DNA from: an uncultured Verrucomicrobiae bacterium
GTDB lineage: Bacteria > Verrucomicrobiota > Verrucomicrobiia > Chthoniobacterales > Terrimicrobiaceae
Reading direction: 5' to 3'
DNA: 64,000 bases
Assembly: GCA_963706955.1 (NCBI GenBank)
Contig: CAVPOC010000008.1
Location: 1,044,293-1,108,292, forward strand
The notes beneath the pieces are model-generated. The model did no database searches. It had not been told where the DNA came from and saw nothing but the letters and a program-made list of their open reading frames with translations. This document shows, piece by piece, positions 573 to 56,181 of this stretch. Numbering within the stretch: position 1 is the stretch's first letter; every line of letters starts with the position of its first letter. A program made the translations under genes and the position numbers.

Positions 573-1331
573 GTGACTACTATTCGTGTTAAGAATCTTG
601 AGCTCATGAGCGCATATCCAGCTCCCGACGATGCGAAACCCATGCTCGCACAATTCGAAGAGTTGGCTCGAAAGCGCCGCGCGACTCGCCACTTTCTGCC
701 GCAACCCGTCGAGCACGAGTTGATCGAACGTTTGCTGCGAACAGCACAATGGGCGCCGAGTGGATATAACCTTCAGCCCACACGATTCATTGTGGTAGCC
801 GATCCTACCACCCGATCGAGGATCAGATCGGCATGCATGAATCAAGCATCCATCGAGGAGGCTCCCATCGTGATCGTGTTCGCCGGAGACCACCTTGCGT
901 CCGACAGGTTGGAGGAAGTTCTAAACCGGGATCTTGCAGCTGGTGCGATTACTCCCGATTACGCCAAGTTCCTGCGCAAGATTGTGCGTTTGATGTTCAA
1001 ACACGGGCCGCTCGGCATCAATTGGCTTTGGAAAGCAACCCTAATACCCCTCGCAAGGCTGTCAGTTCCAATCCCCGAGATCATGGCCGTCCACAAACGC
1101 TTTTGGCTCGCGAAACAGGTTGCGCTCTGCGCGATGAATTTCATGCTTGCGGCGGAGGCGGCGGGCCTAGGGACAGTCCCGATGGAAGGCTTCGATGCCG
1201 GGCGATTGCGCCGCGCGCTTGACTTGCCGCGCTCGTGGGAACCGATTCTTGTCGTTCCGATTGGCTACGCCAAGACAGACCCGCCCAAGAGGACACGGGT
1301 GCCGCTGCAACGGGTCATCCTTTGGCGATAG
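573..1331 (+). CDS. Nitroreductase family protein
   Basis: RRATRHF, APSGYNLQPTRF and GLGTVPMEGFD motifs are typical of the nitroreductase fold. Confidence 0.9.
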   Translation: MTTIRVKNLELMSAYPAPDDAKPMLAQFEELARKRRATRHFLPQPVEHELIERLLRTAQWAPSGYNLQPTRFIVVADPTTRSRIRSACMNQASIEEAPIVIVFAGDHLASDRLEEVLNRDLAAGAITPDYAKFLRKIVRLMFKHGPLGINWLWKATLIPLARLSVPIPEIMAVHKRFWLAKQVALCAMNFMLAAEAAGLGTVPMEGFDAGRLRRALDLPRSWEPILVVPIGYAKTDPPKRTRVPLQRVILWR

Positions 1332-2240
1332 ACTGCTAGCTCAATTACGTAGCATTATCGGACCGCAAATGTCGGTCGCAGCGATGCCTTTTGCGCGCGC
1401 TGAAGTCCGAAAGAGACATCTTCATGATGCTGGGGAAACAGTGCCGTCGCTCGCAGCAGGCCGAAGAAAAATTAGTCAACTTAGCTTAAAAAGGTCAGGA
1501 GGACGCGGGCCTTGGGCCATTGGCAATACCTCTAAGCGCGCTCATCACTCTTTTGCGGACGCATCTTCTCAGACGGAGGTCCTCTCAACTATATTACGGA
1601 TTGCGGGCGCTCACTGGCAGCACTGCAAAAACTAAACTAACCTATGACAAACCCGAACTAGTAGAACTCAATGCTTCCGAAATGGAAGCGATCGGCGTCG
1701 GCTACGGCAGCAGCAGGCGTCCGAGACTCGGTGCGCTGATCGTGCTCCTTCTTCTAGCTCTCCTTCTCCGAAGCCGCACGGCGGCCCCAGATGCGGAAGC
1801 CGCCGCGGTCTGACGAGAGTATCTTCGGTCCGATGTCTGCAAAAAAGCCTCTTGCGGCAATTCGTCTCGAAGATTTATGGGCAGGCACACGGGGATCGTC
1901 CCGTGTGCCTGCTTCGTCAAAGGTTTTCATGATGGTATGCAGCGATTCACATTTGATCCACCCCTCTCGTGATCCGCGCATAAACCGCCGCCCCGCACTG
2001 ACAGCGCTCGCCAAAACTCGCGCTCTCTGAGTGCCCTTTTCGGAATCATTCCTGAGAGATGCCATAGGCAGTCCTAACCCGATTACCGCTGAGAAAAAAA
2101 GAGAACCCACGAGCCGTTCGCCTGTGGTCTCCTTGCGATAATTCTCAGCTTCAATTGTAGCGGCGGCCTGGGCGCCTCCCCTGCGCCGACCGGGCCCTGC
2201 CGCCGTGGTGACACAACCGCTACAAAAGACCGACTACAGC

Positions 2241-3506
2241 TCAATCCATCTTGTTTTGCTGCCAGGATTCCTCGATCGCTTCGACGCCTGCTTCGGGAGT
2301 CATGTTTCCGGCGGCTATGTCTGCGGAGACGTCGTTAAAGACGCGTCCAGTGTCAGGTCCAAGCAACTGATCGATAGCAATCCCGATCCATTGGGACTTG
2401 CCGATCTCCTCGGCGATCGCCTTGAGGAAAGGATCCTTAATTGCTTGAGCCGTCCCTTCGACGGCGGGGATGAACACGCCTGCCTCAGCTATTTTGGTCT
2501 GGGTTTCTTTTCCGAGCCACACCCTCATGAAATCCACTGTCTCTTTAGGTGCCTGCTTGGAAACCAACCAACCGTCCAGGCTCGCGAACAGATCATTGGC
2601 TTTGCCCTTGCCATCTTTGACTTCAGGAAAGAAGAACCATCCCATCTTCTCGTTAGGAAGGCCCTTCTTGTCGGCAGCGTTTCTCCTGCCCTCGACCAAA
2701 TCCCAAGGGCCCATCAGATGAAAGGCCGCCTGGCCGTCGTGAAACACCCCCGATGCTTCCGGATAGGTGTTGGATAGATAGCCCTTCTGAAATGGCTCGA
2801 GGGCGGCGAGCTCTTTATAGAGCTGAAACGCCTTGAGTACGTTTGGATTAGCAAACCCGCCATCCTTGTCCTCATAAGCGGCCTGAAAGCCCTCCTTGCC
2901 GAGGATGCGCATCATGAGCAGGGCGGGGTAAAAATGCAGGGGCCACTTATCCTTGCCACCCGCCGCTATCGGCGTGATGCCCGCCGCCTTGAGCTTTTTG
3001 ACGGCTTCCATGAAATCCTCCCATTGTTTGATCTGCGTCGGATCGACACCAGCCTTTTGGCACAACTCTTTATTATACCAAAAAACCATTGGTGCGAGGT
3101 CGTTGGGCACCCCGTAGGCTTTACCGTCAACGACGAAATTTTGCGCGGTTGCAGGATAAAAGGTCTCGTTGAACCCTCCCTCGGCAATCTCGCTGGTGAT
3201 GTCTTTGCAGATGCCCGCGGCGACCTGTTCGTGCATCACTCCACCGCCCCAACTATGAAAGGCGCTCGGGCGGTCCTTGGACTGCAGCAGCGTCGGCAAT
3301 TTGGCCTTAAAAGCTTCATTCTCCAGATAGTTGAACTGCACGTCCACACCCGGATTGGCGGCTTCGTATTTTTTGGCAGCCTCCTCCCAAATCTCTAGGA
3401 TCTTGGGAACCGATTGCAGGTGAAGGATTTTGACGACGGTTTCCGCCCGCACGGACGAACTAAGCAATCCTAGCAGGGTACAGAGTAGTGATAGTGTGAG
3501 TTTCAT
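2241..3506 (-). CDS. Sugar ABC transporter substrate-binding protein
   Basis: Signal peptide; SBP family 1 motifs (FWYNKEL, GITPIAAGGKDKWP); lies downstream of two permeases. Confidence 0.9.
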   Translation of the reverse strand: MKLTLSLLCTLLGLLSSSVRAETVVKILHLQSVPKILEIWEEAAKKYEAANPGVDVQFNYLENEAFKAKLPTLLQSKDRPSAFHSWGGGVMHEQVAAGICKDITSEIAEGGFNETFYPATAQNFVVDGKAYGVPNDLAPMVFWYNKELCQKAGVDPTQIKQWEDFMEAVKKLKAAGITPIAAGGKDKWPLHFYPALLMMRILGKEGFQAAYEDKDGGFANPNVLKAFQLYKELAALEPFQKGYLSNTYPEASGVFHDGQAAFHLMGPWDLVEGRRNAADKKGLPNEKMGWFFFPEVKDGKGKANDLFASLDGWLVSKQAPKETVDFMRVWLGKETQTKIAEAGVFIPAVEGTAQAIKDPFLKAIAEEIGKSQWIGIAIDQLLGPDTGRVFNDVSADIAAGNMTPEAGVEAIEESWQQNKMD

Positions 3507-3738
3507 GGCGTTGTTTCTATGGTGAAAATGCGACGTCCGATCGCATGCTTGATTTGCGGTTTTAGGGGGTTCAGATTTGCCGTCTAGCTACCGGCTTTCG
3601 GCTCCGTGGGAAGATAGCCTCGACGGGAGCCCGCTGGCAAGGACGCTCGTTAGTATCGTTGTGGAGGTCACGGTTTGTCTAGCGCCGTCCGGGATCGATG
3701 CCGTTCAGGGATATGATCCAGTCGATTCATAGTCCGCT

Positions 3739-4565
3739 CTATCCCTTGACCGCGCCAGAGGTGAGGCCGGCAATAATATGTTTTTGTGCCGCCAGATAAA
3801 AGAGGATCGCCGGTGCGAGAGTCAGGCTGATGTAGGCGAGGACCTTGCCCCAGTCGGTTCCATATTGGCCCTGGTACTGCATGATGCCCAATGGCCAAGG
3901 ATAGAGCGATTCACTATTGATCATTACCAGAGGCAGCAGAAAGGCATTCCAGCTCCCAACCAAGGCCAGGACGCCGACTGTTGCCAGCACCGGTCGCGAC
4001 AAAGGCAGCGTGATCTGCCAGAAATAGCGCGTGTAACTGCAGCCATCGACCACCGCCGCCTCGAGCAGTTCTTTGGGCAATTGCGAAAAGAAGCCCGTGC
4101 AAGATCACCACCGAAAAGCCAAGGTTAAAGGCTACCTGAGGCAGAATCACCCCCCAATAGGTATCCAGCAGCCCTAAATCGCGCACTCGAATGAAGACCG
4201 GCAAGACCGCGGTCGCGAAGGGAAAGGTCAGCCCAAGCGCCAGATAATTGCCGATCAATTTTCGGCCGGCAAAATGCATGTGGGAGAGCGTGAACGCGGC
4301 CATCGAACTGACCAGCACCGTTAGCGACGGTGCTCACAAGGGCGATGATGGCCGAGTTTCCGAGCATCTGCCAAAAGCGGTGGCCCGTGAGGATCTCGAT
4401 GTAATTGTCGACGATCCATTCTCGGGGCAGTCCGAAAGCATTGGTGCGCAAGTCTCCCGTCGTTTTAAAACCGCCGATGACCGTTGCCCACAAGGGCAGG
4501 ATCACTGGGCCGGAAATCAAAAACAGTATCAGGAGCCGATAATAACGAAAAAGTCCTCTATCCAT
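3739..4565 (-). CDS. Carbohydrate ABC permease (MalG-like), split by two indels
   Basis: ORF pieces 4125-4565, 3914-4318 and 3739-4080; EAA motif ELLEAAVVDG; C-terminal IAGLTSGAVKG. Confidence 0.85.
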
Positions 4566-4567
4566 AA

Positions 4568-5531
4568 TTAGCGAGCCTCAGATTCGCGCATGAACAACCG
4601 CTTGTAGAAAATCATCACCAGCACGCAGATGACGAAGAGAATAACACCGACGGCGCTGCCGAAGCCGACCCTCATGCGCTTGATTCCAAACGTGTACAAG
4701 TAGGACACCGCCGAGTGGGTCGAATTCGACGGGCCACCATCCGTTAGCGGGATGATCATGTCGAAGAACTGCAGCGAGCCCAAAATGCTGAAGAACAGCG
4801 AAAGGACAATGACGTGCTTCATCATCGGGAGCACGACGTGCAGGGTCGATTTCCAGCGACTGGCGCCATCGATTTGCGCTGCCTCGAGGATCTCACTGGA
4901 AATGCCCTGCCGGCCGGCAACAAACAACGCCATGTGGAAACCAAAATATTTCCAAATGACGACCACCAAGAGGGCGGCCATGGCCCAGCCCTTCTCGGCG
5001 AGCACTTGCGGCGCTTCGAGACCGAACCAGCTGTAAATCACGGCAACGACACCGTAGTTGCCATCATACATGTAGCGCCAGATCAGGCCGGCCGCGACCT
5101 CGCCAAGGATGTATGGCAGAAAGAAAACCGCCCGGAAGAACACGCTCGAGCGCTGTCCGATCCGAGATCAACAGAGCGACACTCAGCGCGAGCGGCACTT
5201 GGATGAATGCCGAGACGAGGATCACCAGCAGGTTGTTGAAAAGCGCATTGTGGAAAATGGGATCGCTTAGTGCCCGAACATAGTTCTGCAGATTGATCCA
5301 TTTCGTCGGCGCCCCGTATCCGTTCCAGTTGTAAAATCCGTAATAGGCTGCTTCCACCACCGGGAAGGTCACGAATATGGTAAACAGGAGAAGTGCCGGG
5401 GGTAGAAAGAGAAGGCAGGTGGTAAGTTGGCCCGATTGTGAAAAGTCCCGCAGACGCTTGCCAATGGTTTGCTTTGCAACCGCAGGCGGCGGCGCGGTCT
5501 CCTGTGTGGAAGTAAGTTCTTTGCTAATCAC
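4568..5531 (-). CDS. Carbohydrate ABC permease (MalF-like), one indel
   Basis: ORF pieces 5064-5531 and 4568-5143; EILEAAQIDGA motif. Confidence 0.85.
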
Positions 5532-5779
5532 AGGACGTTTCAGCTAAAGGTTGTAACTTAGTCGCGCATTCCACGAGGCCGGATTCTCCTCGAGAGCCGT
5601 GCCGGAAGCGATGCTTGGCTGAGTTTGCTCGATAAGAAGGCAGGGGGCGATGGTCTCGGCATCATACGAAATGCTCCGGTGGTCGTTGTGGTCCTCGCAA
5701 GCCAACTAACCAGATCTAGTCTCATCTTGGATAGGATGTCCGGCCACGATTTGAAGATTCGTCCGACTGGTTTGTGGCA

Positions 5780-6932
5780 TTATTGTGTGGATTTCTGAAG
5801 CGGATTCCAGGTCGCCGGCAATGGCTCGGCCAGCTTGCAGGTCGTGGCGAAGGAAACTGTTTGTCCCGAGTCGGCCGATCGGATGATCGACTCCATGATG
5901 TCGAGGACGTGGAGGGCCAGATCGGCGCTGGCGCGGGGGCTGCCGCCACTGCGCACCGCGCGCGCCAAGTCCAACGCTCCCATGCCGCGACCTTCCGCGC
6001 TGCCCTCCGCCGGAAACTCTGTCCAATCGGCATCGGTTGGCGCGTCCAACCACTCTTGTGGAGAAGTCTTGTTGAGATCTTTCTTGCAGACGAACACGGA
6101 ACCATCAAAGGCGTTCGGGTCGGGCAAGCGGATGGCGCCCCCTGTGCCATGGACTTCCAGCTCGCGTGTCGCAATGGGCTCGTCAAAGCTGAATCTGGCA
6201 GTGGCGATCGGCCCGGAGGCAAACTCCAGCAGCGCCGAGATCTGCGTATCCACGGTGACTTCGAAGGTCTCTCCCGCGCGCGGCCCGCTGCCGATCGTCC
6301 GTTTATTCTGGGCTCGCCGGCCAAAGCCGGAGACCGTCTTCACGGGGCCAAAGAGCTGGACGAGCGCAGTGAGGTAGTATGGGCCCATATCCAGCAGCGG
6401 CCCTCCACCTTTTTGGAAAAGAAACTCTGGGTTTGGATGCCAGGCATCCGGGCCTGGATAGCCAAACGTGGCCTTGGCCGAGATCGGGGTGCCTATCCGG
6501 CCAGCCTCGATCACTCGGCGTGCCGTCTGCAAGCCCGCACCCAGGAAGGTGTCGGGAGCATTGCCCAAGTGGACTTTGTTCTCAGCAGCCGCCGCGATAA
6601 TCGTCTCGGCCCTCTTCGAGCGACAACGCGAACGGCTTCTCGCCATAGACATGCTTGCCTGAACGAATCGCCTGGAGCGCCACGCTGGCGTGGACCGCAG
6701 GGATGGTCAGATTTATGATCAATTCAACGTCGGGCATCTCCAAAACCGTGGCCAGATCCGCGGAGTGCGGCACCCCGTACTTCGCCGCCTGTGCCGACGC
6801 GCGACTCAAATCGATGTCCGCGCACGCAATGACGTTGACATCTGGGAAGCGGACCAGGTTCGTCAGGTATTGGTCGCTGATGTTACCGCAACCAACGACG
6901 GCAATTCCGACCGGTTCAAAAGTATTGCTCAT
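5780..6932 (-). CDS. Gfo/Idh/MocA oxidoreductase, frameshifted
   Basis: N-terminal VVGCGNIS, GKHVYGEKP, then GGGPLLDMGPYY in the next frame. Confidence 0.85.
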
Positions 6933-6963
6933 AGATGTTTTCTCGTTGGAATCGTTTGACCGA

Positions 6964-7868
6964 TTATCGATTGGCGGTAAATGCATCCGGGCCGAACTGC
7001 TTGGCAATCCAGGCTGCGGAAATTTTCGTGGATTCGAGGTTTGTCGGGGCCTCGGGCACGTCGACTTCGACAACGATCCAGCCGTTAAACGATGAGGGAA
7101 GCGCGCCCAACGCCGGCGGCCAGGTCGATATCGCCCCGACCCGGCTCTGTCCAGACGGTAAACTTTCCTCGGGTGGCCTCGTGGTAGCTGGCGCCGGCAG
7201 CTTTTGACTGCCTTCACTTGATCGGCATGAACATCCTTGAGATGCATTCCTGCGATTCGCGTGGAATAACGACTCATGATCTTGACTGGGTCCACTCCGG
7301 CCCAGGTGAGATGGCCGGTATCCGGACCGAATCCGAGGATCGAGTCTGGGACGCCCTGCAGAACCGTATCGATTTCGTTTTCCACTTCGATCGCGCTTCC
7401 GACGTGAGGGTGCAGCATGGGCCGCACTCCTTCAGCGACAATGGCGGCTAGCCGCGGCGCCGACGCCATCGACGACTTTCGCCAAGATCGGCCGCGTCAG
7501 CATCCGCACCGATCGCCGGATGTTCTACACGGACTCCGTCCACATTGGCGGCAAGGAAGACCTCTGTGTTGCCGAGCTCCGCCTGAACAGCCGCATGCCG
7601 TTTCGCGCTCTCGGCGATCTTGATCCAGCGGAGTGTCATGGAACGACGCTGCAAAGTAACCGGGTGCCGGAACAAACCCATAATCGGCAAGAAGAGCACG
7701 GTACTCGGACGGCGTCAACTCGGCCGGCGGGTCGGCCTGGATCGCTTTGAACGGAGTGGTGGCGATTTCTGAAAAGGCTTGGCGAAGGACCGGAACAGAA
7801 AGGTCAAATCCTCTTTCAGTGAGCACCCACGGGAGCGGGTTCAAGGCGATTTTGGCGTGGCTGGTCAT
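6964..7868 (-). CDS. Sugar phosphate isomerase/epimerase (IolE-like TIM barrel), several indels
   Basis: HPHVGSAIE, GPDTGHL and MHLKDV metal-binding motifs found across frames. Confidence 0.75.
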
Positions 7869-8081
7869 AGGTGGTTGTCCCGGCAGACTAGCCGGACAAC
7901 CCCTCCTCAGATAGAATTTCTCAATGGCCTTTAGAACATTCGTCCGACTTTCCGACAGTCGAAGCACTTTCCGGCGATGCAGACGCGCCAGCCGGCCGGC
8001 TGCAACCGATCGCCTCCGCGGTTGACATCATGAACCGCAGAAAGCCGCAGGCTCTCGGCGTACCCGAATCAGGTCGTCAGT

Positions 8082-8956
8082 TCAACTGTGCTTTGCTGAG
8101 AGCGAAACGCTGCCGGCGGTTGTGCCGAAGAAGCGTCGAAAGTGGCGATTGAGGTGCGCCTGGTCACAGAAGCCCGTGGTGGCTGCGATCTCGGCCAATG
8201 AAAGGGAAGGATTGCGCTGGCCGATGAGTTTGCGCGCGTGGTTTAGGCGGACGAGGAGCAAATATTGATGCGGGGTATGGCCGGTGAGTTGACGGAACAT
8301 GAGCGCAAAATGACTGCGACTCATCTTCGCCAGCGAAGCCAGCTCGTTCAAAGAGAGGTCTTCGGCAAAATCTTTCTCCAGACGCTCAACTGCTCGCCTG
8401 ATGTCCAGGCGGAACAGCCGTCTTTCGTTCCCCTTTTTTACAGTCCCAAGCACGCGCAAAGCTAGGGCACGGGCAAGCGGCTCGAAATAGAGCGGACCAT
8501 GTGGGCATTGATCCTCGGTCTCTTCCATGAGAAGCCGGCATAAGGCTTCCGTCCGCTGGTCGATGGCAAAGAAATGATGCCAATGCGACTTCGGAGATAA
8601 CCTCGAAGAGCCCCATCTCTTTGGCCATCGCCTCGAAAAAAGCAGGCGAGAAGCTGAAGTTAACAACAAAGCCCGCGGCACCCTCCCACTCGCCAAAAAC
8701 CGGCACGCCTGGAGGCGAAACAAAGATATTTCCCCGGTGAATGTGGTGATGGTGCAAACCAAGCTCCGGAACCGTAATCCACGTGTCTCCCTTCTCTGTT
8801 CTTGGCCTGTACCAGAAGGTGTAAGTGTTCTGAGCGGGAGTTACGGCAGAGGAAACGTTGGCGGGAAGCCTGTGGATGGCGACTTTGAGCGCATCGACCC
8901 CGGAGCGATCGCTCCGCAGAACAACCAGAGTCATTAACATTTAAAGCTCCGGCCAT
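8082..8956 (-). CDS. AraC family regulator, copy 1 (indels)
   Basis: AraC HTH (MSRSHFALMFR...GFCDQAHLNRHFRR); closely paralogous to 9033-10007. Confidence 0.85.
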
Positions 8957-9032
8957 TTTTGGCTACAGCTTCACGCGCAGGAACATAACAGCTCAATCTC
9001 GGACGGCACTCGAAACCTCTCGCTGGCAGAAT

Positions 9033-10007
9033 TCACAGATTCAGGACGTTCGCGCTCGTCGGTCTTTGACCTAACGCCGGATCACCCTGCCGCGACATCG
9101 CTGACTGCTTGCCAGGCGGAGCGTGAACAACGCTGTGCTGTGACCGGAAAGCTGCGGGGGTCGTGCCGAAAACGCGGCGAAAATGACGGCTGAGGTGCGC
9201 TTGGTCGCAAAAGCCGCTTGCCGCGGCAATCTCGGCCAGCGGAAGTGCCGAGTTGCCTTGCGCGATGAGTTTGCGCGCATGATTTAACCGCACCAAAAGC
9301 AGGTATTGGTGCGGCGTGTAACCCGTAAATTCTCGAAACATGAGCGCAAAATGGCTGCGGCTCATCTGCGCCATGGTCGCAAGTTCACCCAAAGAAATCT
9401 CGTCCGCGAAATCGGTTTCCAGATGTTGGACAGCGTGGCGGATGCCCGGTGGCACGCTCGCAGCACGCCAGGCGCGGCCGCGCTGATCGCGCACCGTCCC
9501 CAGAACCTTCAGCGCCAAGGCGCGGGCAAGTGGCTCGAAGTAGAGCGGACCATTGGGACATTGTTCCTCGGTTTCCTCCATCAGGAGCCGACACAATGCT
9601 TCGATCCGCTGGTCGATGGCAAAAAAATGGTGCCAAGGCCGCTTTGAAATAAGCTCTGAAAGACCCATCTGCGCGGCAAGAGATTCGAAAAAGCGGGCAT
9701 CGAAACTGAAGTTGGCCACGGTGCCCTCAGCCTCTTCCTGTTCACCATGCACAGGCAAGGCAGGCGGAGAGATCAGCAAGTGATTGCGACTGACATGATG
9801 GTGGTCCAACCCAAGCTCCGGAACCGTCAACCATGTGTGTCCTCTCTCTGCCCGCGGCCTGTACCAAAACGTGTAAGCGTCTTGTTCAGGTGTGAAGGAC
9901 GACCAGGCATTCGCCGGAAACCTGTGGATGGTAACCGATAGCTCCTTGACCGCGGAGCGATCGCTCCGGTGAATAATCAAGTCATTGACGTTTATCGGCC
10001 CGGGCAT
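9033..10007 (-). CDS. AraC family regulator, copy 2
   Basis: AraC HTH GFCDQAHLSRHFRRVFGTTP. Confidence 0.9.
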   Translation of the reverse strand: MPGPINVNDLIIHRSDRSAVKELSVTIHRFPANAWSSFTPEQDAYTFWYRPRAERGHTWLTVPELGLDHHHVSRNHLLISPPALPVHGEQEEAEGTVANFSFDARFFESLAAQMGLSELISKRPWHHFFAIDQRIEALCRLLMEETEEQCPNGPLYFEPLARALALKVLGTVRDQRGRAWRAASVPPGIRHAVQHLETDFADEISLGELATMAQMSRSHFALMFREFTGYTPHQYLLLVRLNHARKLIAQGNSALPLAEIAAASGFCDQAHLSRHFRRVFGTTPAAFRSQHSVVHAPPGKQSAMSRQGDPALGQRPTSANVLNL

Positions 10008-41011: not shown

Positions 41012-41068
41012 TAGCCGGGCGGAGGATGCTCGCGGTTTTCTCGTTCCACTCAAGAACCCACTATCCGC

Positions 41069-42424
41069 GTGACAGGCTCACTGGTAATTCCCTGTTCGGA
41101 GACCCCTAGGATCAACGTGAGCTTCGAGCTTTTGTATCTGCTGATTGGCGTGCTGCTCGTGTCGGTGGCCATACTCGCGTCATCAGTAAAGCGCTTGCCG
41201 CTTTCTGAGGCGATGATCTATCTGGCCGCCGGAACAGCTTTGGGGCCGCTGGGACTTCGCTTTCTGTTTGTTGATCCGGAAGCGCACTCCGAACTGCTCG
41301 AACGCGCCGCGGAAATTGCGGTCATTATCTCGCTCTTCACGACAGGACTGAAGTTACGTGTTCCGCTCCGTGATCCACAATGGTGGGTTCCTCTTTGCCT
41401 GGCTTCCGGTTCCATGGTCTTGACGGTTGGAATGATAACCCTCGTGGCGATCTTTGGACTCGGTTTGCCACTGGGAGCAGCGGTTCTTCTCGGTGCGATT
41501 CTTGCCCCAACCGATCCGGTCCTCGCTTCCGGCGTTCAACTCGAGAACATTCGCGATCGCAACCGACTACGCTTCAGCCTGACCGGTGAAGCGGGCTTGA
41601 ACGACGGGACCGCCTTTCCCCTGATAATGCTCGCTCTCGGGCTGTGCGGCCTTCATGATCTTGGCGCCTGGGGTTGGAAGTGGTGGACGATCGATGTGAT
41701 CTGGGCGATTTTTGCCGGTCTCGGCGTCGGTGCGCTCTGTGGAACCATGATCGGCCAAGGAGTAATTTACCTTCGGCGGGAACATCACGAAGGCATCGGA
41801 AGGGATGAATTGCTCGCACTGGGACTCATTGCACTCTCTTACGGCGCGGCTCTGCAGCTCCATGGATACGGATTTCTCGCCGTCTTTGCCGCAGGCCTGA
41901 CTTTGCGGACAGTCGAACGGAAACATACCGGGAAAGAGCCGCCGCCGGAAGAACTTGCCGTGGAGGCTGCTTTGAAGCCCGATGAAATCGCAACCCATCC
42001 GGACAAAGGCCCGGCGCATATGGCCGGCGCTATCCTTACGATCAACGAGCAAATGGAACGCATCGTTGAAATCGCCATCGTGCTCGTTGTCGCCGCTGCA
42101 CTGTCGCCCCAATATCTCCATTTCGAGGCGACATGGTTCATCGCGATCTTTTTTCTACTCATCCGACCGCTGGCAGTATGGTTCGGGTTGCTCGGACAGA
42201 AGGTCCCCCCATCCGAGCGTCGCCTCATCTCCTGGTTTGGCATCCGGGGAATTGGATCGCTCTACTATCTGATGTTTGTGCTGAATCGAGGGATACCAGA
42301 GGATCTGACATCACAGCTGATCTCTATAACGCTGACCACGATTGCCGTTTCCATCGTGGTGCATGGAATCACGGTGACGCCGCTCATGGATTGGCACCAA
42401 AGCCGACGCAGACGACAAAGTTGA
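41069..42424 (+). CDS. Cation:proton antiporter (CPA1/NhaP-like)
   Basis: [17 protein letters not shown] and WFGIRGIGS. Confidence 0.9.
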
Positions 42425-42569
42425 GTCCCCGCAGAGCCGACATTTACAACCCCGATATGAGATGTCGTCGATCGTTTACTGGACTCGGCGGACTTTCCCG
42501 ACCTTTGAACAAGGCAATCAGAGATTCTGTTTCGGCATCCATGCCGGCATTGACCTGCGAAACATGGGT

Positions 42570-42755
42570 ATGACAAAACTAGAACTCAAAGGCAGTTGGA
42601 ACGAGATCAAAGGCAAACTAAAACAGAAGTACGGACAACTCACCGACGATGACCTGACCTTTGCCGAGGGTAAAGACGATGAATTACTCGGCCGTTTGCA
42701 ACAACGGCTCGGCAAGACCAAGGAGGACATCCGTCGCGAGCTAGAAGGGCTGTAA
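42570..42755 (+). CDS. CsbD family protein
   Basis: [23 protein letters not shown]. Confidence 0.9.
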
Positions 42756-42850
42756 AACCTCCCCGGCGTTCCCAGCCTCGAGAGCGAAGTTAAGCGGTTG
42801 CCGTTCGCGCGCATTGACGCGCTGACGGAGGCGTTATCTATGTACCTACT

Positions 42851-43738
42851 ATGAAAGACGCTCTCGATCTTTTGAAACAGGCTGCTTGGGATTGGTTCGA
42901 CGATAGCGCTCCGACCCTGGGCGCCGCCGTCGCGTACTACACCGTCTTCTCACTTGCCCCCCTCTTTGTCATCGCCGTATTCATCGCCGGCCTGGTCTTC
43001 GGCCAGGAGGCGGCGCAGGGTCAGATCTTTGTTCAATTGCGTGCGTTGATCGGCGAGACCAGTGCCGCCGCCATGGAAGACGTGGTGGAAAGCGCCAATT
43101 CACAGCCGAAGACCGGCGTGTTTGCCACGATTGTCGGATTTGTTGTTTTGATTGTCGGCGCCTCGGGAGTTTTTGCGCAGATGCAGGCTTCACTCAATGC
43201 CATCTGGCGCGTGGAACCCAAGCCCGGACGCGGTATCTGGGGGCTTCTTCAAGATCGAATCCTCTCTTTTGGCTTTATACTCGTCGTCGGATTTCTCCTT
43301 CTGATCTCCCTGATTCTGACCGCGATCATCGCGTTTATCGGAACATGGTTTGGCGGCTTCCTGCCTGGCGTCGAGACGCTCATCCAGATCCTGAACGCCA
43401 TCCTCTCCTTGGCGATCATCACCTTGCTCTTCGCCATGATTTTCAAGTTTCTGCCCGATGTGAAGATCGCCTGGCGCGATGTCTGGATCGGTGCCCTGAT
43501 CACGGCCGGGCTCTTTACCGCAGGCAAAGAAATTCTCGGGCTCTATCTGGGAAAGAGTGGCGTGGCTTCGTCCTACGGTGCGGCCGGATCCCTGATCGTC
43601 CTGCTCTTATGGGTCTACTACTCGGCGCAGATTGTCTTTTTCGGAGCCGAGTTCACGAAGGCTTATGCAAATAAATTCGGCTCGCGTGTCGTCCCGGCAG
43701 AAAATGCAGTCGCCGTGGCGAAAAGACGGTTGACCTGA
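42851..43738 (+). CDS. YihY/BrkB family membrane protein
   Basis: GAAVAYYTVFSLAP and YGAAGSLIVLLLWVYYS. Confidence 0.9.
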   Translation: MKDALDLLKQAAWDWFDDSAPTLGAAVAYYTVFSLAPLFVIAVFIAGLVFGQEAAQGQIFVQLRALIGETSAAAMEDVVESANSQPKTGVFATIVGFVVLIVGASGVFAQMQASLNAIWRVEPKPGRGIWGLLQDRILSFGFILVVGFLLLISLILTAIIAFIGTWFGGFLPGVETLIQILNAILSLAIITLLFAMIFKFLPDVKIAWRDVWIGALITAGLFTAGKEILGLYLGKSGVASSYGAAGSLIVLLLWVYYSAQIVFFGAEFTKAYANKFGSRVVPAENAVAVAKRRLT

Positions 43739-43788
43739 ATCCACGAGCGTCCTGCCTAAGAAAAAACAGAGCAGCACGCGGCTGCGTT

Positions 43789-44253
43789 CTACGGCTTCAA
43801 GTCAACCGCGGCTCTGTTGCTGCCGTCCATATAAAAGGGCACTGATTCATGCTCGTGAATGATTAGCCATCTTCCTTCGATCTTGCATAGGCCAACTGTT
43901 TCCCGCAGCCAGATATCTGTTCTCTCGCCGCTAACCTTTTGGCCGCTTATTCGGTTAAGGCTGTGACAGAAGGCCACATCGTCGCCAACCCTTATCGTCA
44001 GATCGCGGATCTCGAGGCTGATCGGTCCTCGAAAGGTCTTAAACCACTCTTCCAGATTCTGCTTCAGATCACTCTGTGCTTGCAATGGAGGCGCTAGAAA
44101 AAATCCCACACTTTCCGGCGACGTATGCGATAAAACTGCGTCGGCATCCTTGGCGCAAATCGCGCCTGCCCAAGCCTCAATTACCCGGCGGATTTCGGAT
44201 TCGTTCGTTGCTTCGTTCATAAGCGATTTCAGGTTTTTACGGATCTCGGACAC
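43789..44253 (-). CDS. SnoaL/NTF2-like protein
   Basis: WLRETVG...WLIIHEHESVPF. Confidence 0.8.
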   Translation of the reverse strand: MSEIRKNLKSLMNEATNESEIRRVIEAWAGAICAKDADAVLSHTSPESVGFFLAPPLQAQSDLKQNLEEWFKTFRGPISLEIRDLTIRVGDDVAFCHSLNRISGQKVSGERTDIWLRETVGLCKIEGRWLIIHEHESVPFYMDGSNRAAVDLKP

Positions 44254-44273
44254 GTCGGAAGAGGCTGTAGTTC

Positions 44274-44949
44274 TTAATACTCATCATGACGACGCCACCA
44301 CTCGTAGGGTGGTGTCTGCGGCCATCCGGCTGGTGAATCCTCCCACTGCTCTTGTCGGCCGAGCGGTGTCAGGTCGAGCAGAGCGAAGCTACTGACCAAG
44401 TGCTCAACACCGCGAGCAGTCGTGAAGTAGGTCTGGAAAATAGCATCGCCGTTTCGCAGGAACACGCTGAGTCCAAAGGTTTCGCCTTCTGGAGTTGTGA
44501 GTCCGAAATCGTCATTGAAATCCGTGCCGGCGGAGGAAAACCATGGGATCGCTCCATCCCATCCGCCGTCTGTACGCCTCGAGATTTGCGAGCGGCGCGC
44601 GCGAGACCAGCACAAGGGAAGTGTTGCGAGTGTGCAGGTGCGCAACCGGACCAAGGTGGTCGACCACCATGGAGCAGCCTGGACAACCCGCCGAAGGCCA
44701 GCCGTCAACATCTGGCGCAAACATGAAATGGTAAATAATGAGCTGGCGACGTCCGGCAAAGAGATCAAGCAGACTTGCTTTGACCCTCGGGTCCCTCAAA
44801 GATGTAGTTCTTCTCGATCGGGAACATCGGCAGGCGGCGACGTTCGGCCGTGAGACATCGCGCGCCCGCGTAGCCGCCTTCTCCTTGACCAACAATTGGT
44901 CTCGAGCTCGCTGCCACTCCTCCCGCGAGATGATCGGCGGATGGCTCAT
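44274..44949 (-). CDS. DUF899 thioredoxin-like protein, frameshifted
   Basis: LLVKEK, LIIYHFMF, GCPGCS and LLDLTPLGRQE. Confidence 0.85.
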
Positions 44950-45317
44950 CAGTGATTCGTTTTAGAGTTCTCTTTCGACGACATGGGATCCTTCACGGTT
45001 GTCTTTGTTTTTCTTCTTAGATACTTCGAGGCGGCAAGGGCTGTCCATCCGGTGGTGGTGGCAGCAGCAGCAGTTGCAGCGCGATGGTAGCAAGGCAAAA
45101 CGGACACATGGCTCAAGCTGCTCCTTTCCAACATGTGCAGTTTCGCCGGGTCTACCATCGCCATGAATGACGAGTTCGGAAGCTGTCATGATATGGTCAT
45201 GAAAAAATCGCAAGCCTTCATAGAAGTTTGTGAATTTCAATACTTCGACGAACGAACCGATCGAAAAAGGACGCCTCCAGAAAGTCACGCCGAGACCATG
45301 ACCATCGATCCTGGGGT

Positions 45318-46307
45318 TCAGGGATGCTCGGGCCAATTGATGTTATCCAGCAGCTGGGCCAGCCGCACACCGGCTTTAGTCAACTGTCGCGCAGCATAAA
45401 CGCGGTTAGCGTCCAAATAATTGACGGGCAATTCAATGTCGATCCGCAGGAGATTCTTGTCTGCATCGACCTCTGTTTTCTGAAAGACGATCCCTAGATA
45501 GGCCAGAGCGGCAATGCGCACCGATTCGATCACCCACACTTCTGGCCAGCCGTACAGGTCTCCCGGCGTTTTCGTGGTCTCTTCGGTGCTGATGTTCTTT
45601 GATAGGAGATCTGCCAGCGCTGTCGCCTCGGCAGTATCGTGAATCGCTTTAACAAGCAGGACGTCCCAGAAAGCGTGCAGTTGTTCGGAAGGAGTGGTTC
45701 CATAAAAGAGAAGATTTCCGCCGCGGTCGTTCGGTTTCCCGAATGCCTGTGCCGGAAAGGTAATGAGCTCGGCCCTGCCCGGTCTATCGAGAGTGTAATA
45801 ACCGGTCCCACAGTGCAGGGGCTGGTGCACGTCACCGACCAAATGGACGAGAAGCCGGAGTGCCTGCACCTTGGTAAGCTCCTGCGAATTTGAAACCGGC
45901 GCTTCAAGAACCTGAATACAACGGGAAATCGCCTTGGCGATGCTGTCTTGTGGTGTGAACGCGCGGGCCTCCTCGGCAGATAAAGTGCCGAGCGGAAGAT
46001 TGACAAAATGCCATGTCCGATTGTTGGGGAACTTTCGATTAAACTCCTGGGCTTCGGAGTCTTCATTCAGCGGTCCCTTACCACGTGCAGCTGAGACGAG
46101 ATCGTCGGCCCAAGAAGCGACCGAGACGAGGCTCTCGTCGCCGCCTTCCGCCAACAAGTGTTTCACGTTCGCGCGAGTGTCAGGAGAGATGAGACGCTCG
46201 GCGATCAACGCGATGACTGCGTGACCTTCGGGTGCCCAGGAAAACGCCTTTGCGGGCCAGAGGGCCAAAGACGCCAAGCCGATCAAAACTGGAAGGAGAC
46301 TCTTCAT
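45318..46307 (-). CDS. S1/P1 nuclease family protein with signal peptide
   Basis: Mature N-terminus WAPEGH, WAD, WHFVN, HLVGDVHQPLH, DRGGN, LHAFWD and AGVRLA. Confidence 0.92.
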   Translation of the reverse strand: MKSLLPVLIGLASLALWPAKAFSWAPEGHAVIALIAERLISPDTRANVKHLLAEGGDESLVSVASWADDLVSAARGKGPLNEDSEAQEFNRKFPNNRTWHFVNLPLGTLSAEEARAFTPQDSIAKAISRCIQVLEAPVSNSQELTKVQALRLLVHLVGDVHQPLHCGTGYYTLDRPGRAELITFPAQAFGKPNDRGGNLLFYGTTPSEQLHAFWDVLLVKAIHDTAEATALADLLSKNISTEETTKTPGDLYGWPEVWVIESVRIAALAYLGIVFQKTEVDADKNLLRIDIELPVNYLDANRVYAARQLTKAGVRLAQLLDNINWPEHP

Positions 46308-46355
46308 GCGCCATCCTACCGAGTATGCGGCAAGGTGGCTAGCGATGCGACAGCA

Positions 46356-47342
46356 TCACCTTAACACAGAGAACCTGAAGTAATTCTTCTCTATCTTATC
46401 GGGAACGAGGATGCGAAGCGTCCTTTCGAAATTCGCGATCTCCCTGCTTTCGATCAGCTTGAAATTGTTTTCCCTTTCCAGGAACTCATCCGTGAAAATC
46501 CTCTTAATTGCCAGATACGACGCGAACATCGTCGTTGGAATATCGAATAACTTGAACTCCTTCCCGTTCACAAAGTCTCCCTCGATGTAAAACGGAAACG
46601 GTCTGATCTTGGTTTCGACGACAATCTGCTTCAGGCCGGCCGCCCGCCTCTTGAAGCTGTCCTGGTCAAGTTCCACGAGGTTCTGCGGAATTTGCACCTC
46701 GATGGTTCGGTACCTGTTGATGATATCGCACTCGGTTTCTGAGATCTTTTTGCCAGCCGCGTCCTTCTCTATGATCTTTATCTTGTCGGAGTGTTCGAAG
46801 GCTTCAAATACCCGCCGCAAGAAGTTATTGTAGTAGCCTATCGCGAGCGAGGTGGAAGGAAGGAGAGTGAAATGCTGGAGTCTTTCGGCTACCTCCATTT
46901 CTTCTCGTATTCGACTGCAGGCGTTCCCGACAGCCGCAACCAGGTTGTCTCTTTTTCTGAACTTCGCAACCTCGATGCCACTCCAATCAGAGAAGAGCTC
47001 GACACCTTCCTCCAATACCAGAAAGGTGCGGTTCGGTCCGAGCCGGCCGAGAAATAGTCCAAACTCAAAGATGACATTGTCGCGAGTAACTTTGACCTGC
47101 TTCTCTCTGATAATCGCCTCGTCATCACCCGTGAAGACAGCAATTACAAAATCATAGAAACTGGCGCGGTTAAGCAGCGTATCGAGGTAGTTCCTGTTAG
47201 CTTTGAAAATGTTTTCGCTCCAAATATCCACATCGGCTTCGCTGTCGAAGTGGCTTTTTACGGCCCGAGCCAACGGCAGAGCTTCTTTGGAAGAAGCTAT
47301 GAAAATATTCGCGCGCCTTTTGGTTGCAGTATAGTTCGGCAT
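46356..47342 (-). CDS. TIR-STING fusion (Cap12-like cyclic dinucleotide receptor/NADase)
   Basis: TIR: IFIASSKE, RDNVIFEFGLFLG; prokaryotic STING: LPSTSLAIGYYNNF, RPFPFY, DIPTT, REIANFERTL. Confidence 0.9.
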   Translation of the reverse strand: MPNYTATKRRANIFIASSKEALPLARAVKSHFDSEADVDIWSENIFKANRNYLDTLLNRASFYDFVIAVFTGDDEAIIREKQVKVTRDNVIFEFGLFLGRLGPNRTFLVLEEGVELFSDWSGIEVAKFRKRDNLVAAVGNACSRIREEMEVAERLQHFTLLPSTSLAIGYYNNFLRRVFEAFEHSDKIKIIEKDAAGKKISETECDIINRYRTIEVQIPQNLVELDQDSFKRRAAGLKQIVVETKIRPFPFYIEGDFVNGKEFKLFDIPTTMFASYLAIKRIFTDEFLERENNFKLIESREIANFERTLRILVPDKIEKNYFRFSVLR

Positions 47343-47440
47343 GAAGTGTCAGTAAGAAACTAGACCTAATGCTCTCTAATAAAAGCACTCCGGGCCGCGG
47401 CCTGCTCGCCCGTGAGATCCCGAAATCGTGAAATATTTTT

Positions 47441-48328
47441 TTGCCACATCCGAATGCGGGAGTCAAGCCGCGGGAAACCGCACGGAGCTCCGCTCATTCT
47501 CGAGTCGAGTGCGCTTTGGCATTGACGAGCCGCCCTGGTGTAAACGATTTGGTCCCGGTGGACCTAGCCACCGCAGAAAGGACGCCAAAACAGAATCAGT
47601 TAGTCGTGATTGAAAAGGTCAACAAGTTCTATGGCGACCTCCATGTGCTTAACGACATCACGACAACCATCACCCGCGGCGAAGTCGTCATCGTCATCGG
47701 CCCATCCGGCTCTGGAAAATCGACGCTCTGTCGGGCGATCAATCGGCTCGAGACAATCGACTCCGGAACCATCCTCATCGACGGCAAGCCGCTCCCTGAG
47801 GAAGGCAAAGAACTCGCCAGACTGCGCGCCGATGTTGGGATGGTCTTTCAATCATTTAATCTCTTTGCGCACAAAACCGTCCTCGAAAATGTGACGCTCG
47901 GACCGATCAAAGTCCGAAGCGTAAAACCAAACGACGCTCGCGCAAGGGCCATGCTCCTGCTCGAGCGCGTCGGCGTTGCCAACCAGGCACAAAAGTATCC
48001 TCACCAGCTTTCCGGCGGACAGCAGCAGCGCGTGGCCATCGCGCGCTCCTTGGCCATGGACCCAAAGCTGATTTTGTTGGATGAACCGACTAGCGCCCTC
48101 GACCCTGAAATGATTTCCGAAGTGCTCGATGTCATCGTGAACCTTGCAAGCGGTGGCATGACAATGCTGGTCGTAACTCATGAAATGGGTTTTGCCAGTA
48201 ACGTGGGCAGCCGGGTGGTTTTCATGGCAGACGGAGAAATCCTTGAAGAAGCTCCGCCGGCGGAGTTTTTTAGGAATCCTCAAACTGCGCGAGCGGCCGA
48301 TTTCCTGTCGAAAATACTCGCGCACTAA
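47441..48328 (+). CDS. Amino acid (glutamate) ABC ATPase, GluA-like; true start probably further downstream
   Basis: GPSGSGKST, LSGGQQQR and DEPTSALD. Confidence 0.9.
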   Translation: MPHPNAGVKPRETARSSAHSRVECALALTSRPGVNDLVPVDLATAERTPKQNQLVVIEKVNKFYGDLHVLNDITTTITRGEVVIVIGPSGSGKSTLCRAINRLETIDSGTILIDGKPLPEEGKELARLRADVGMVFQSFNLFAHKTVLENVTLGPIKVRSVKPNDARARAMLLLERVGVANQAQKYPHQLSGGQQQRVAIARSLAMDPKLILLDEPTSALDPEMISEVLDVIVNLASGGMTMLVVTHEMGFASNVGSRVVFMADGEILEEAPPAEFFRNPQTARAADFLSKILAH

Positions 48329-54915: not shown

Positions 54916-55030
54916 GGCAACAGAGATCCACTAATGTTCGCAGACGTCCATTTTACAAGGGTTTGTCCACATTGGACATTGACGGACATTCTCGGACACT
55001 CTAACTGAGACTCTAACCACACATTTGCAA

Positions 55031-56181
55031 ATGTCCTGCGTTTGGAAACCGCCGAAGAGCCGATTCTGGATCGCGCAGTTTACCGATCACACTGGTACAC
55101 GACGCAATCGGAGCACGAAGACAACCGACCGTCGGAAGGCAGAGAAGCTAGCCGAGCATTACGAAGAGGCATACGCGAGAAAGCGCACCGCCCGGCAGAT
55201 CCGAGAAGTGATCTCCAGCGCCCACAAAGAAATTACCGGTGAGCAACTGGTCAACAAATCGTTTCGCTCTTTTTCGAAGTCATGGCTTGCGGCAAAGCGG
55301 AATGAAGTAGCGGAGGCGACATTAAAGTTCTACTCGAAGGCAGTGGATAAATTCCTCGCTCACCTTGGCACGCTAGCCGATGCGGACTTGAGCGAAATTA
55401 CCCGTGAACACATTTTGGACTTTCGCAATCGCGAGGCGGAGACGTTCGCACCGAAAACGGTAAACCACGATCTGAAAGCGGTGAAAATGCTCTTCCGATC
55501 CGCAAAGCGGGACGGATTGATTGCTGATAATCCGGCCGAGGATGTCAAAACTGTCAGCCAACGGGGAGAGAAGCGGACTGGCGTCCTTTCTCCATGGATG
55601 AGCTTCGCGCCGTTCTCTCCGTAGCAGATGAGGAATGGAAGAGCATGATTCTTTTCGGCCTCTACAGCGGGGCGCGCCTTTTTGATGTGGCAACGCTGAC
55701 GTGGCAAAATGTGGACCTTCCCGCCAAGGAATTGCGCTTCATCGCCAGAAAAACGGGCAAGACGATCATCGTTCCCCTGGACGGGCCGCTGGCCGCGCAC
55801 GTCGAAGCGCTGCCTGCCGCCGATTCCGTTAACGCCCCGCTGCATCCCCGTGCCTTTGGCATTGTGGAAAGGCAGCGAAAAACGGGCCATCTTTCAAATC
55901 AGTTTGCGGATTTGCTCGCGCAGGCCGGACTAAAGGAGAAGCAGCCACACCGCAAAACGCTTCGCAGGGAACACGGGCGATGCCGCGCGCAGGCCGACAT
56001 CTCGTTCCACAGTTTGCGGCATACCGCCGTCACCTTACTGAAGGAAGCCGGAATCCCCCAGGCGGTCGTCATGGAGCTTGTTGGCCACAACAACCAGGAA
56101 ATGAGCCAGCATTATACTCGCGTAGGCCGTATGGCCCTGGAAGGTGCGGCAAGAGCATTTCATGACCTTCTGGCTCGTTAA
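55031..56181 (+). CDS. Tyrosine recombinase/integrase (indel near 55585)
   Basis: YSGARLFD, SFHSLRHT, LVGH and HYTR; paralogous to 12628-13750. Confidence 0.92.

Follow-up and report, generated by a model that had tools for sequence, protein, structure and literature searches.

We analysed a 64,000-nucleotide stretch of DNA, hereafter the window (contig CAVPOC010000008.1 of assembly GCA_963706955.1, positions 1,044,293 to 1,108,292), from an uncultured Verrucomicrobiae bacterium of the Terrimicrobiaceae, and focused on a gene that encodes a Cap12-type TIR-STING. The gene lies at 46356..47342 on the minus strand, starts with ATG and runs through 328 codons without interruption, as seen from the open reading frame (ORF) and its translation. 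Its product matched Pfam families PF10137 (CAP12-PCTIR_TIR; residues 12–129, E 4e-28) and PF20300 (prok_STING; residues 162–310, E 2.6e-24), and PDLC00729, the PADLOC model for TIR effectors of antiphage signalling systems based on cyclic oligonucleotides (CBASS), spanned its whole length (E 1.4e-85). The solved Cap12 proteins that it matched were 9lmq (E 2e-46), 8hwi (STING domain, E 1.6e-44) and 7un8 (E 8e-36), the last of which, together with 7una, we take to be SfSTING from Sphingobacterium faecium. All of these sequence comparisons place the protein in the TIR-STING family.

The predicted TIR NADase domain (46956..47309, minus strand; residues 12–129) contains the putative catalytic Glu93 within RDNVIFE, and the predicted cyclic dinucleotide-binding STING domain (46413..46859, minus strand; residues 162–310) contains Arg247 in an RPF lid motif and Asp267, Thr270 and Thr271 in DIPTT. 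The columns of RDNVIFE, PSTSLAIGYYNNF, RPF and DIPT were invariant or nearly so among relatives. Glu93 was invariant in two alignments (A1 and A2), paired with the conserved Glu of 9lmq and was present in 68 of 69 aligned TIR-STINGs, missing only through a gap in the aberrant L020 row; Arg247 and Asp267 were conserved in all 69 rows, and Thr271 was conserved too. The best solved match of the STING domain was 8hwi, a Larkinella STING with cyclic di-GMP (c-di-GMP), and the passages of PMC10739871 on the lid assign an Rx(Y/F) motif to c-di-GMP recognition.

The STING domain aligned to 8hwi with a single one-residue gap, whereas its alignment to 9lmq was gapped at the lid segment and those to STINGs without the insertion contained gaps. 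Positions 180–219 comprise 39 residues, as compared with 25 in 20 of 27 CdnE-linked STINGs and 25–29 in all 27. Segment length and these alignments point to an LrSTING-like 'long lid' at approximately residues 186–216 (46695..46787, minus strand). In the part of PMC10739871 that deals with it (Hou et al. 2023), the long lid is a 14–15-residue insertion where the STING domain begins; it makes up a second lid and is described as auto-inhibitory. By its sequence, the TIR-STING of the window is a member of this LrSTING-like long-lid subclass.

Downstream of the TIR-STING gene lies an S1/P1-family nuclease gene (45318..46307, minus strand; 329 aa; PF02265, E 1.5e-42), with a predicted Sec-type signal peptide over residues 1–23 (nt 46239–46307) and Trp24 as the predicted mature end. 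The 48 nt that separate the TIR-STING stop from the nuclease start (46308..46355, minus strand) showed no terminator-like site in a scan of the minus strand. On the other side, 98 nt upstream, a divergent operon for an ABC ATPase, a solute-binding protein and a permease begins at 47441; the intergenic region common to both (47343..47440, minus strand), which presumably holds the TIR-STING promoter and 5' untranslated region, contained no match to the sigma-70 consensus. The stretch occurs nearly unchanged in soil metagenomes from at least seven studies, the TIR-STING sequence being 99% identical in an independent metagenome contig, and L112, an independent metagenome contig of the same species, has the same ABC/TIR-STING/nuclease arrangement. 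Contigs from four soil and rhizosphere metatranscriptome libraries (four studies) matched pieces of both genes with 95–100% identity, and two of them extended 60–80 nt upstream of the TIR-STING start, to 47404 and 47420. This is a weak hint that both genes are transcribed, and they are probably co-transcribed.

An earlier note, made from the letters of this DNA alone, had described an intact 328-aa TIR-STING with its catalytic Glu and STING motifs, flanked by an S1/P1 nuclease and a divergent ABC operon, with no nucleotidyltransferase of the cGAS/DncV-like kind (CD-NTase) in the 64 kb. The ORF, the Pfam, PADLOC and PDB matches and the conserved columns bear out the first claim, Pfam confirmed both neighbours, and a CD-NTase was found neither in the window nor in the assembled genome. 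The earlier note had overlooked that the nuclease is co-directional with TIR-STING, starts 48 nt downstream of it and recurs beside TIR-STINGs elsewhere.

The published picture, as given in the relevant sections of two papers (PMC8748872; PMC10739871), is of a bacterial STING that senses c-di-GMP produced by a CD-NTase of the same operon. Such an enzyme was searched for in the host genome (G000), a metagenome-assembled genome (MAG) of 4.16 Mb in 15 contigs that is 92.5% complete. Pfam SMODS (PF18144) alone is not valid for STING-associated cyclases, as it missed CdnE-type proteins beside TIR-STINGs at E<=1e-5; PADLOC cyclase models and local hidden Markov models (HMMs) were therefore used as well. 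PADLOC identified no CD-NTase among the window ORFs submitted. In the host genome, PF18144 gave no matches, the PADLOC cyclase models PDLC00784, 00807, 00774 and 00780 gave none at E<=1, and three local CD-NTase HMMs, built from the three cyclase types seen beside TIR-STINGs, gave none at E<=10 among 10,719 open frames, in a run in which an S1/P1 HMM recovered its single target. Likewise, tblastn with the cyclase of L113, the nearest CBASS relative, returned nothing from this genome. If a CBASS is defined by a CD-NTase encoded with the effector, the window gene does not belong to one.

GGDEF domains (PF00990) were absent from G000 and from G004 and G010, the other two genomes of its genus with a full-length TIR-STING, in a search that gave control matches in 8 of 14 reference genomes; EAL domains were absent from the host genome. 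For the assembled genome, a host diguanylate cyclase is excluded as the ligand source. The only cyclic-dinucleotide synthase found was the product of a single DAC gene (PF02457, E 1.4e-36), a three-helix membrane CdaA encoded directly after folP, which is a housekeeping arrangement. Two further candidates were rejected. A Cas10 of a type III CRISPR system was discarded as signal source upon finding no RAMP families, and no array in a crude repeat scan, in the host genome; and the host's only Pol-beta nucleotidyltransferase (NTP_transf_2 plus DUF4037, C8:268696-269577), considered as a hidden cyclase, matched no cyclase model, had no solved relative and lies between the housekeeping genes nrd and ribBA. 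The latter is present in 8 of the 19 genomes of the genus, with a distribution independent of TIR-STING. The earlier note had suggested three sources of a ligand made in trans, a host diguanylate cyclase, a distant CD-NTase or phage-perturbed pools; a genome-wide HMM check for the first two recovered neither from the host assembly, no CD-NTase turned up in G004 either, and of the three genomes only G010 has one, 16 kb from its TIR-STING.

The nearest relatives of the window's protein outside the genus are encoded on metagenome contigs L113 and L114 (78% identity), L121 (81%, partial) and L128 (86%, partial), where a DncV-like CD-NTase and a minimal E2 gene lie directly upstream of TIR-STING, which constitutes a type II-short CBASS. 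More distant ones accompany another cyclase type plus E2 (L119, 59%) or a cyclase and E2 located downstream (L123, 53%), and L115, 77% identical to the window's protein and 90% to that of L113, is without a cyclase. Since relatives at 78–86% identity are found in CD-NTase-E2-TIR-STING operons, the cyclase would have been lost in the lineage of the window.

In a maximum-likelihood tree of 69 TIR-STINGs (quick search, unrooted, SH-aLRT supports), where L020 formed an aberrant long branch, the proteins of the window and G004 grouped together (support 95) within a seven-row clade of mixed cyclase-linked and cyclase-less members (support 97), itself inside a 12-row long-lid clade (support 100) and a 19-row clade (support 97). 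All other branches of the 19-row clade lack a cyclase and belong to Myxococcota, Chloroflexota, Pseudomonadota, Planctomycetota and Bacteroidota. The tree requires at least eight switches between the states with and without a cyclase, gains and losses being indistinguishable on it because it is unrooted.

G004 belongs to a sister species of the same genus. Its TIR-STING is 86% identical to that of the window and has the nuclease downstream and no cyclase beside it, nor was a CD-NTase found anywhere in this genome, which is 96% complete. Between the two orthologues dN was 0.080 and dS 2.46 (saturated), giving an omega of approximately 0.03; omega was 0.057 for the L113/L115 TIR-STING pair and 0.13–0.20 for the nucleases. 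The saturation of synonymous sites between two cyclase-less orthologues indicates that the loss is old rather than recent. Parsimony suggests that the cyclase-less arrangement shared by G000 and G004 was inherited; if so, the protein would have been kept intact through a long divergence without a cyclase, which speaks against both a recent deletion and a dead relic. The check that the earlier note had named as refuting its reading, namely closest homologues always next to a CD-NTase and hence a recent deletion here, had a mixed outcome: those of L113, L114, L121 and L128 do, those of G004 (86%) and L115 (77%) do not, and the loss is old.

We also surveyed 80 loci from representative genomes, one per species; 63 matched over the full protein, 62 of these with an intact ORF, and 17 TIR-only matches plus L071 were left out. 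Neighbours, defined as three ORFs of at least 110 aa per side, were classified with Pfam (L010-L032), local HMMs and PADLOC, 16 ORFs with clear housekeeping Pfam matches having been dropped before one PADLOC run. Within three genes, CdnE was directly beside TIR-STING in 27 of the 62 loci, another CD-NTase type, usually with E2, was present in 9, csm genes of type III CRISPR lay directly upstream in 3, an S1/P1 nuclease was present in 2, no cyclase was found in 16, and the contig was too short to judge in 5. A sample of 401 genomes of the phylum contained no further full-length TIR-STING, only TIR-only matches.

Whole-genome searches of 15 genomes with cyclase-less TIR-STINGs yielded no match to PF18144 (0/15) or PDLC00784 (0/15), and the same searches recovered the cyclase in 5/5 and 4/4 positive-control genomes, where TIR-STING belongs to a CBASS. 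Four isolate assemblies are among the 15, namely a complete 7.2-Mb Schlesneria chromosome and three from Variovorax, with Mucilaginibacter sp. CAU 1740 as a further, fifth isolate record. The cyclase-less proteins retained Glu93 in 17 of 18 cases, the aberrant L020 row being the exception, and both Arg247 and Asp267 in 18 of 18. GGDEF domains were detected in 7 of the 15 cyclase-less genomes, mostly as single weak matches, and were absent from the other 8 as well as from all nine CBASS-type genomes; in the genus of the window they occur in 3 of 19 genomes, none with TIR-STING. Morehouse et al. are said to have observed in 2020 that STING-bearing bacteria tend to be without c-di-GMP signalling. 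The Variovorax genomes of L020, L021 and L030 (7.5–8.1 Mb) yielded a single GGDEF match apiece, of which two were weak (E 3e-6 and 3e-5), which is unexpectedly few and may reflect a limit of the search or a real loss of c-di-GMP signalling.

In three Saprospirales/Saprospiraceae genomes, csm genes of type III CRISPR lie directly upstream of TIR-STING, and the three-gene neighbourhood holds no CD-NTase: L026 (csm5 742-1863; TIR-STING 1876-2766), L037 (csm3/4/5 1162-4608; TIR-STING 4626-5516) and L043 (csm5 6926-8101; TIR-like 8119-8877; TIR-STING 8941-9825). This gene order suggests a STING effector that may be wired to Cas10 signalling.

The predicted S1/P1 nuclease of the window, the sole copy in the host genome, resembles solved members of the family (8qjl, bacterial; 1ak0, P1; 5fb9, S1) in its PF02265 match over the whole domain and in its mature N-terminal Trp, and differs from them by low sequence similarity (best E 2.5e-14, over the N-terminal half). 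Trp24, preceded by a hydrophobic signal sequence, aligned with chain residue 1, a Trp, in all six solved S1/P1 matches; putative zinc ligands in the C-terminal half were recognised by eye. Given the signal peptide and the need of this family for a free N-terminal Trp, the nuclease should act outside the cytoplasm.

Across 61 related genomes PF02265 was present in 20. Within the genus (g1; 19 genomes), full-length S1/P1 genes occurred only in G000, G004 and G010, the same three that have a full-length TIR-STING, and in none of the other 16, and the two genes were adjacent in each of the three. The flanks of the pair differ: the ABC operon in G000, a peptidase M20 and a cyclic nucleotide-binding (cNMP-binding) protein in G004, and a phosphotransferase system (PTS) permease, a TIR-beta-helix protein and a bSEFIR protein in G010. 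Moreover, the G010 TIR-STING is only 33% identical to that of the window, falls in a different clade and has the nuclease upstream of it, in reversed order, and nuclease identities (72% for G004-G010, 62% for G000-G004 and 63% for G000-G010) do not follow the TIR-STING relationships. The differing flanks, the divergence and gene order in G010 and the discordant nuclease identities argue against simple inherited synteny.

Outside the genus, on metagenome contig L122, a TIR-STING with 60% identity converges with an S1/P1 gene (E 1.2e-61), and S1/P1 adjacency needs three separate origins on the TIR-STING tree. The number of such neighbours expected by chance is far fewer than one by a rough, informal estimate, made from approximately 1.7 Mb of flanks and at most one S1/P1 copy in about a third of related genomes, with kin being non-independent. 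No TIR-type gene was found within 1.5 kb of the relatives' other S1/P1 genes, and the nuclease matched no PADLOC model. L122 also shows a second kind of TIR-nuclease pairing, a 699-aa TIR_2-domain protein (3488-5587, minus strand) followed by the S1/P1 nuclease gene (2393-3397, minus strand). In G005 (L109, G005:C77:42269-45158, around 1340-1690), a degraded S1/P1 remnant survives as three short pieces in about 350 bp, in a 2.9-kb locus with no TIR-STING.

G010 contains, about 16 kb upstream of its S1/P1-TIR-STING pair, a separate CBASS whose cyclase is of the PDLC00780 type (E 2.5e-91) and which also has CapP and a patatin phospholipase effector, located at 4848-8994 of L193 (G010:C4:311000-328000). 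Together with L009 10610-15213, and with the TIR-beta-helix and bSEFIR proteins just downstream of the pair, it looks like a defence island.

Comparison with described systems sets the window apart in its gene context. With the Cap12 CBASS effectors (7un8/7una, 9lmq and 8hwi, LrSTING of Larkinella arboricola) the window's protein has in common the two-domain architecture, the length, the catalytic Glu, the Rx(F/Y) lid motif with its guanine-reading Arg and the DxPTT motif, plus the long lid of the LrSTING type; unlike them, it has a CD-NTase neither adjacent nor detectable in the assembled genome. Its counterparts in the type II-short operons and their relative (L113, L114, L121, L128 and L119) are 59–86% identical and fall in the same long-lid clade, but there a CD-NTase and a minimal E2 lie directly upstream, whereas in the window that side is occupied, 98 nt away, by the divergent ABC operon, and a secreted nuclease lies downstream. 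A further parallel is offered by the standalone STINGs of unicellular eukaryotes (choanoflagellates), which, in the portion of bioRxiv 10.1101/2025.09.04.674280 devoted to them, bind 3'3'-c-di-GMP and are proposed to detect foreign bacterial c-di-GMP. As far as that portion describes them, they too are STINGs in genomes without a cognate cGAS-like enzyme; they differ in carrying transmembrane or other fusions, whereas the window's protein belongs to a bacterial host and has a predicted TIR NADase effector. A literature search, with supplements outside its scope, found neither a bacterial cyclase-less or orphan TIR-STING nor a link between S1/P1 and TIR proteins; both questions may be touched on in Morehouse 2020 and in Burroughs & Aravind 2020.

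These data would fit a working dinucleotide-gated NADase that has outlived the loss of its ancestral cyclase, is inherited along with a secreted S1/P1 nuclease and responds to a ligand that the host could not make by any known route, a reading to which we give an even chance of being right. By homology with studied members, we infer that a 3'3' cyclic dinucleotide would close the STING lid, c-di-GMP recognised through Arg247 and Asp267 being the likeliest, that the dimers would polymerise, and that the TIR domains, through Glu93, would then destroy NAD+ and arrest the cell. The lineage would derive from a type II-short CBASS operon whose cyclase and E2 were lost long ago, and selection would since have maintained the protein as a cyclase-less sensor-effector. 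Because the host is without recognisable CD-NTase, GGDEF or EAL proteins, any c-di-GMP-like ligand should be non-self, coming from an invading element or another organism, or else be made by an unrecognised synthase. Strong purifying selection on the intact gene makes a function without an adjacent CBASS cyclase plausible. The CBASS-independent role proposed by the earlier note thus gains plausibility from an intact, cyclase-less and constrained gene, and the part of it that relied on a host diguanylate cyclase is not supported.

Several observations weigh against this reading. A source of ligand for TIR-STING was not found in the assembled genome by these searches, about 7.5% of the MAG is missing, and the window ends where contig C8 ends, so that a cyclase could sit on an unbinned element. 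The other cyclase-less genomes were searched with two cyclase models, which a divergent or unknown synthase family would escape, and G010, with its separate CBASS 16 kb away, is not cyclase-free. As for the pair, no RNA-library contig bridges the 48-nt spacer, DNA carry-over into those libraries is possible, and the uncovered parts of the stretch carry no meaning; besides the window, an S1/P1 gene stood beside TIR-STING in only 4 of the 141 loci surveyed, one of them (L112) from the same species, and 15 genomes from other genera of the order have S1/P1 genes but no TIR-STING. Finally, the nuclease should be extracytoplasmic and TIR-STING is without an export signal, so no direct coupling between them is evident.

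The most ordinary alternative is a cyclase located in the missing 7.5%, past the end of the contig or on a plasmid, that supplies its ligand in trans, making this a CBASS spread over two loci; completeness of 92.5%, the position at a contig end and the example of G010, whose CBASS cyclase 16 kb from TIR-STING renders supply in trans conceivable, are all compatible with it. We nonetheless consider it improbable, given that the 96%-complete G004 has no cyclase either, that none was detected in any of the 15 other cyclase-less genomes, a complete chromosome and isolates included, with nine of nine controls detected, and that the stretch recurs in soil metagenomes of at least seven studies and its arrangement in L112. 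Still less credible, and in our view very unlikely, is a decaying or functionless leftover of a CBASS, shorn of its cyclase and E2 and persisting by chance only. The complete CD-NTase-E2-TIR-STING operons of the closest relatives outside the genus and the presence of other broken genes in the window (DUF899, 44274-44949; integrase, 55025-56181) would agree with decay, but the reading frame is unbroken and no catalytic or ligand-binding residue is missing, omega is 0.03 over saturated synonymous divergence between cyclase-less orthologues, and the gene reappears at 99% identity in an independent metagenome contig and, in pieces, in RNA libraries.

The protein might instead have been rewired to another self-made ligand, such as cyclic di-AMP (c-di-AMP) from CdaA, or have become a ligand-free switch for stress or NAD+ homeostasis, with no part in anti-phage defence. 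DAC is the one cyclic-dinucleotide synthase found in the host, and PMC10739871, in the passages concerned, reports that ElSTING binds c-di-AMP with micromolar affinity and notes DisA-linked STING genes; however, the same passages report that c-di-AMP failed to activate the ElTIR-STING NADase, the product of a housekeeping CdaA beside folP should be constantly present, and the guanine-reading Arg and Asp are retained together with the Rx(F/Y) lid motif assigned to c-di-GMP recognition. We find such rewiring hard to credit. More open is the standing of the nuclease, which could be an unrelated neighbour brought close by shared variable or defence islands or by chance, without any two-gene module. 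This is a real possibility, if somewhat short of even: the nuclease is exported by prediction and TIR-STING cytoplasmic, the nuclease is foreign to PADLOC models, S1/P1 genes stand without TIR-STING in those 15 genomes of other genera and as a remnant in G005, and most TIR-STING loci have no S1/P1 gene nearby. Against mere coincidence stand the genus-wide match of full-length S1/P1 with TIR-STING (3/3 versus 0/16), always adjacent despite different flanks, gene order and 33% identity, the independent L122 case, and the rough estimate of far fewer than one chance neighbour.

Returning to the dinucleotide-gated NADase kept without its cyclase, a bolder extension, which we regard as doubtful, is that cyclase-less TIR-STINGs might serve as bacterial pattern-recognition receptors. 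Cells that had given up c-di-GMP signalling could treat a c-di-GMP-type dinucleotide in the cytoplasm as the mark of an invader or attack and respond by depleting NAD+, with the S1/P1 nuclease as a functional partner. The nuclease could then guard the periplasm, degrading 3'-5'-linked dinucleotides and single-stranded nucleic acids on their way to the receptor, or, alternatively, form a first-line barrier against incoming single-stranded DNA. Commercial nuclease P1 digests 3'-5'-linked cyclic dinucleotides completely, according to the relevant portion of bioRxiv 10.64898/2026.08.10.743927, so a role of the window nuclease in destroying such molecules is chemically plausible.

The 16 of 62 TIR-STING loci, about a quarter, without a nearby cyclase contrast with the literature picture of a receptor for the product of a same-operon CD-NTase. 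They raise the question of what activates STING in a cell unable to make its ligand, while the catalytic and guanine-reading residues stay strongly constrained. If non-self dinucleotides were the trigger, the sensing of foreign cyclic dinucleotides by STING would have its origin moved back from eukaryotes to bacteria; if an unknown synthase supplied the ligand, a new signalling enzyme would be implied. The repeated pairing of TIR-STING with a secreted S1/P1 nuclease offers a second, independent lead, to an undescribed defence-associated gene.

A conserved third gene was sought on both sides of the pair and rejected. The small downstream ORFs (44962-45336 in the window, 131 aa in G004 and 180 aa in L122) are unrelated, of low complexity and probably spurious, and the upstream proteins of G004 (319 aa and 159 aa), L115 (metallo-beta-lactamase, MBL, fold) and L124 (AraC/DJ-1) are mutually unrelated. 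PADLOC analysis of 48 other window ORFs produced no relevant defence-system match and two weak unrelated ones, to a Cas3a2 fragment and to a homing-endonuclease-like model. The latter (PDLC03707, E 1.5e-7) concerns a 483-aa ORF near the contig end (59995-61446, plus strand), downstream of a split integrase, which may be a mobile-element remnant. That phage-type integrase (55025-56181, plus strand) is divided into N-terminal SAM-like and catalytic parts, and the DUF899 gene (44274-44949, minus strand) over two overlapping frames; both are pseudogenes or assembly frameshifts. The segment beside the nuclease that encodes a Na+/H+ exchanger, BrkB and DUF899 (41037-44954) has a second copy about 560 kb away (G000:C8:526770-530655), 83–87% identical, and of the two it is the window copy that has the broken DUF899.

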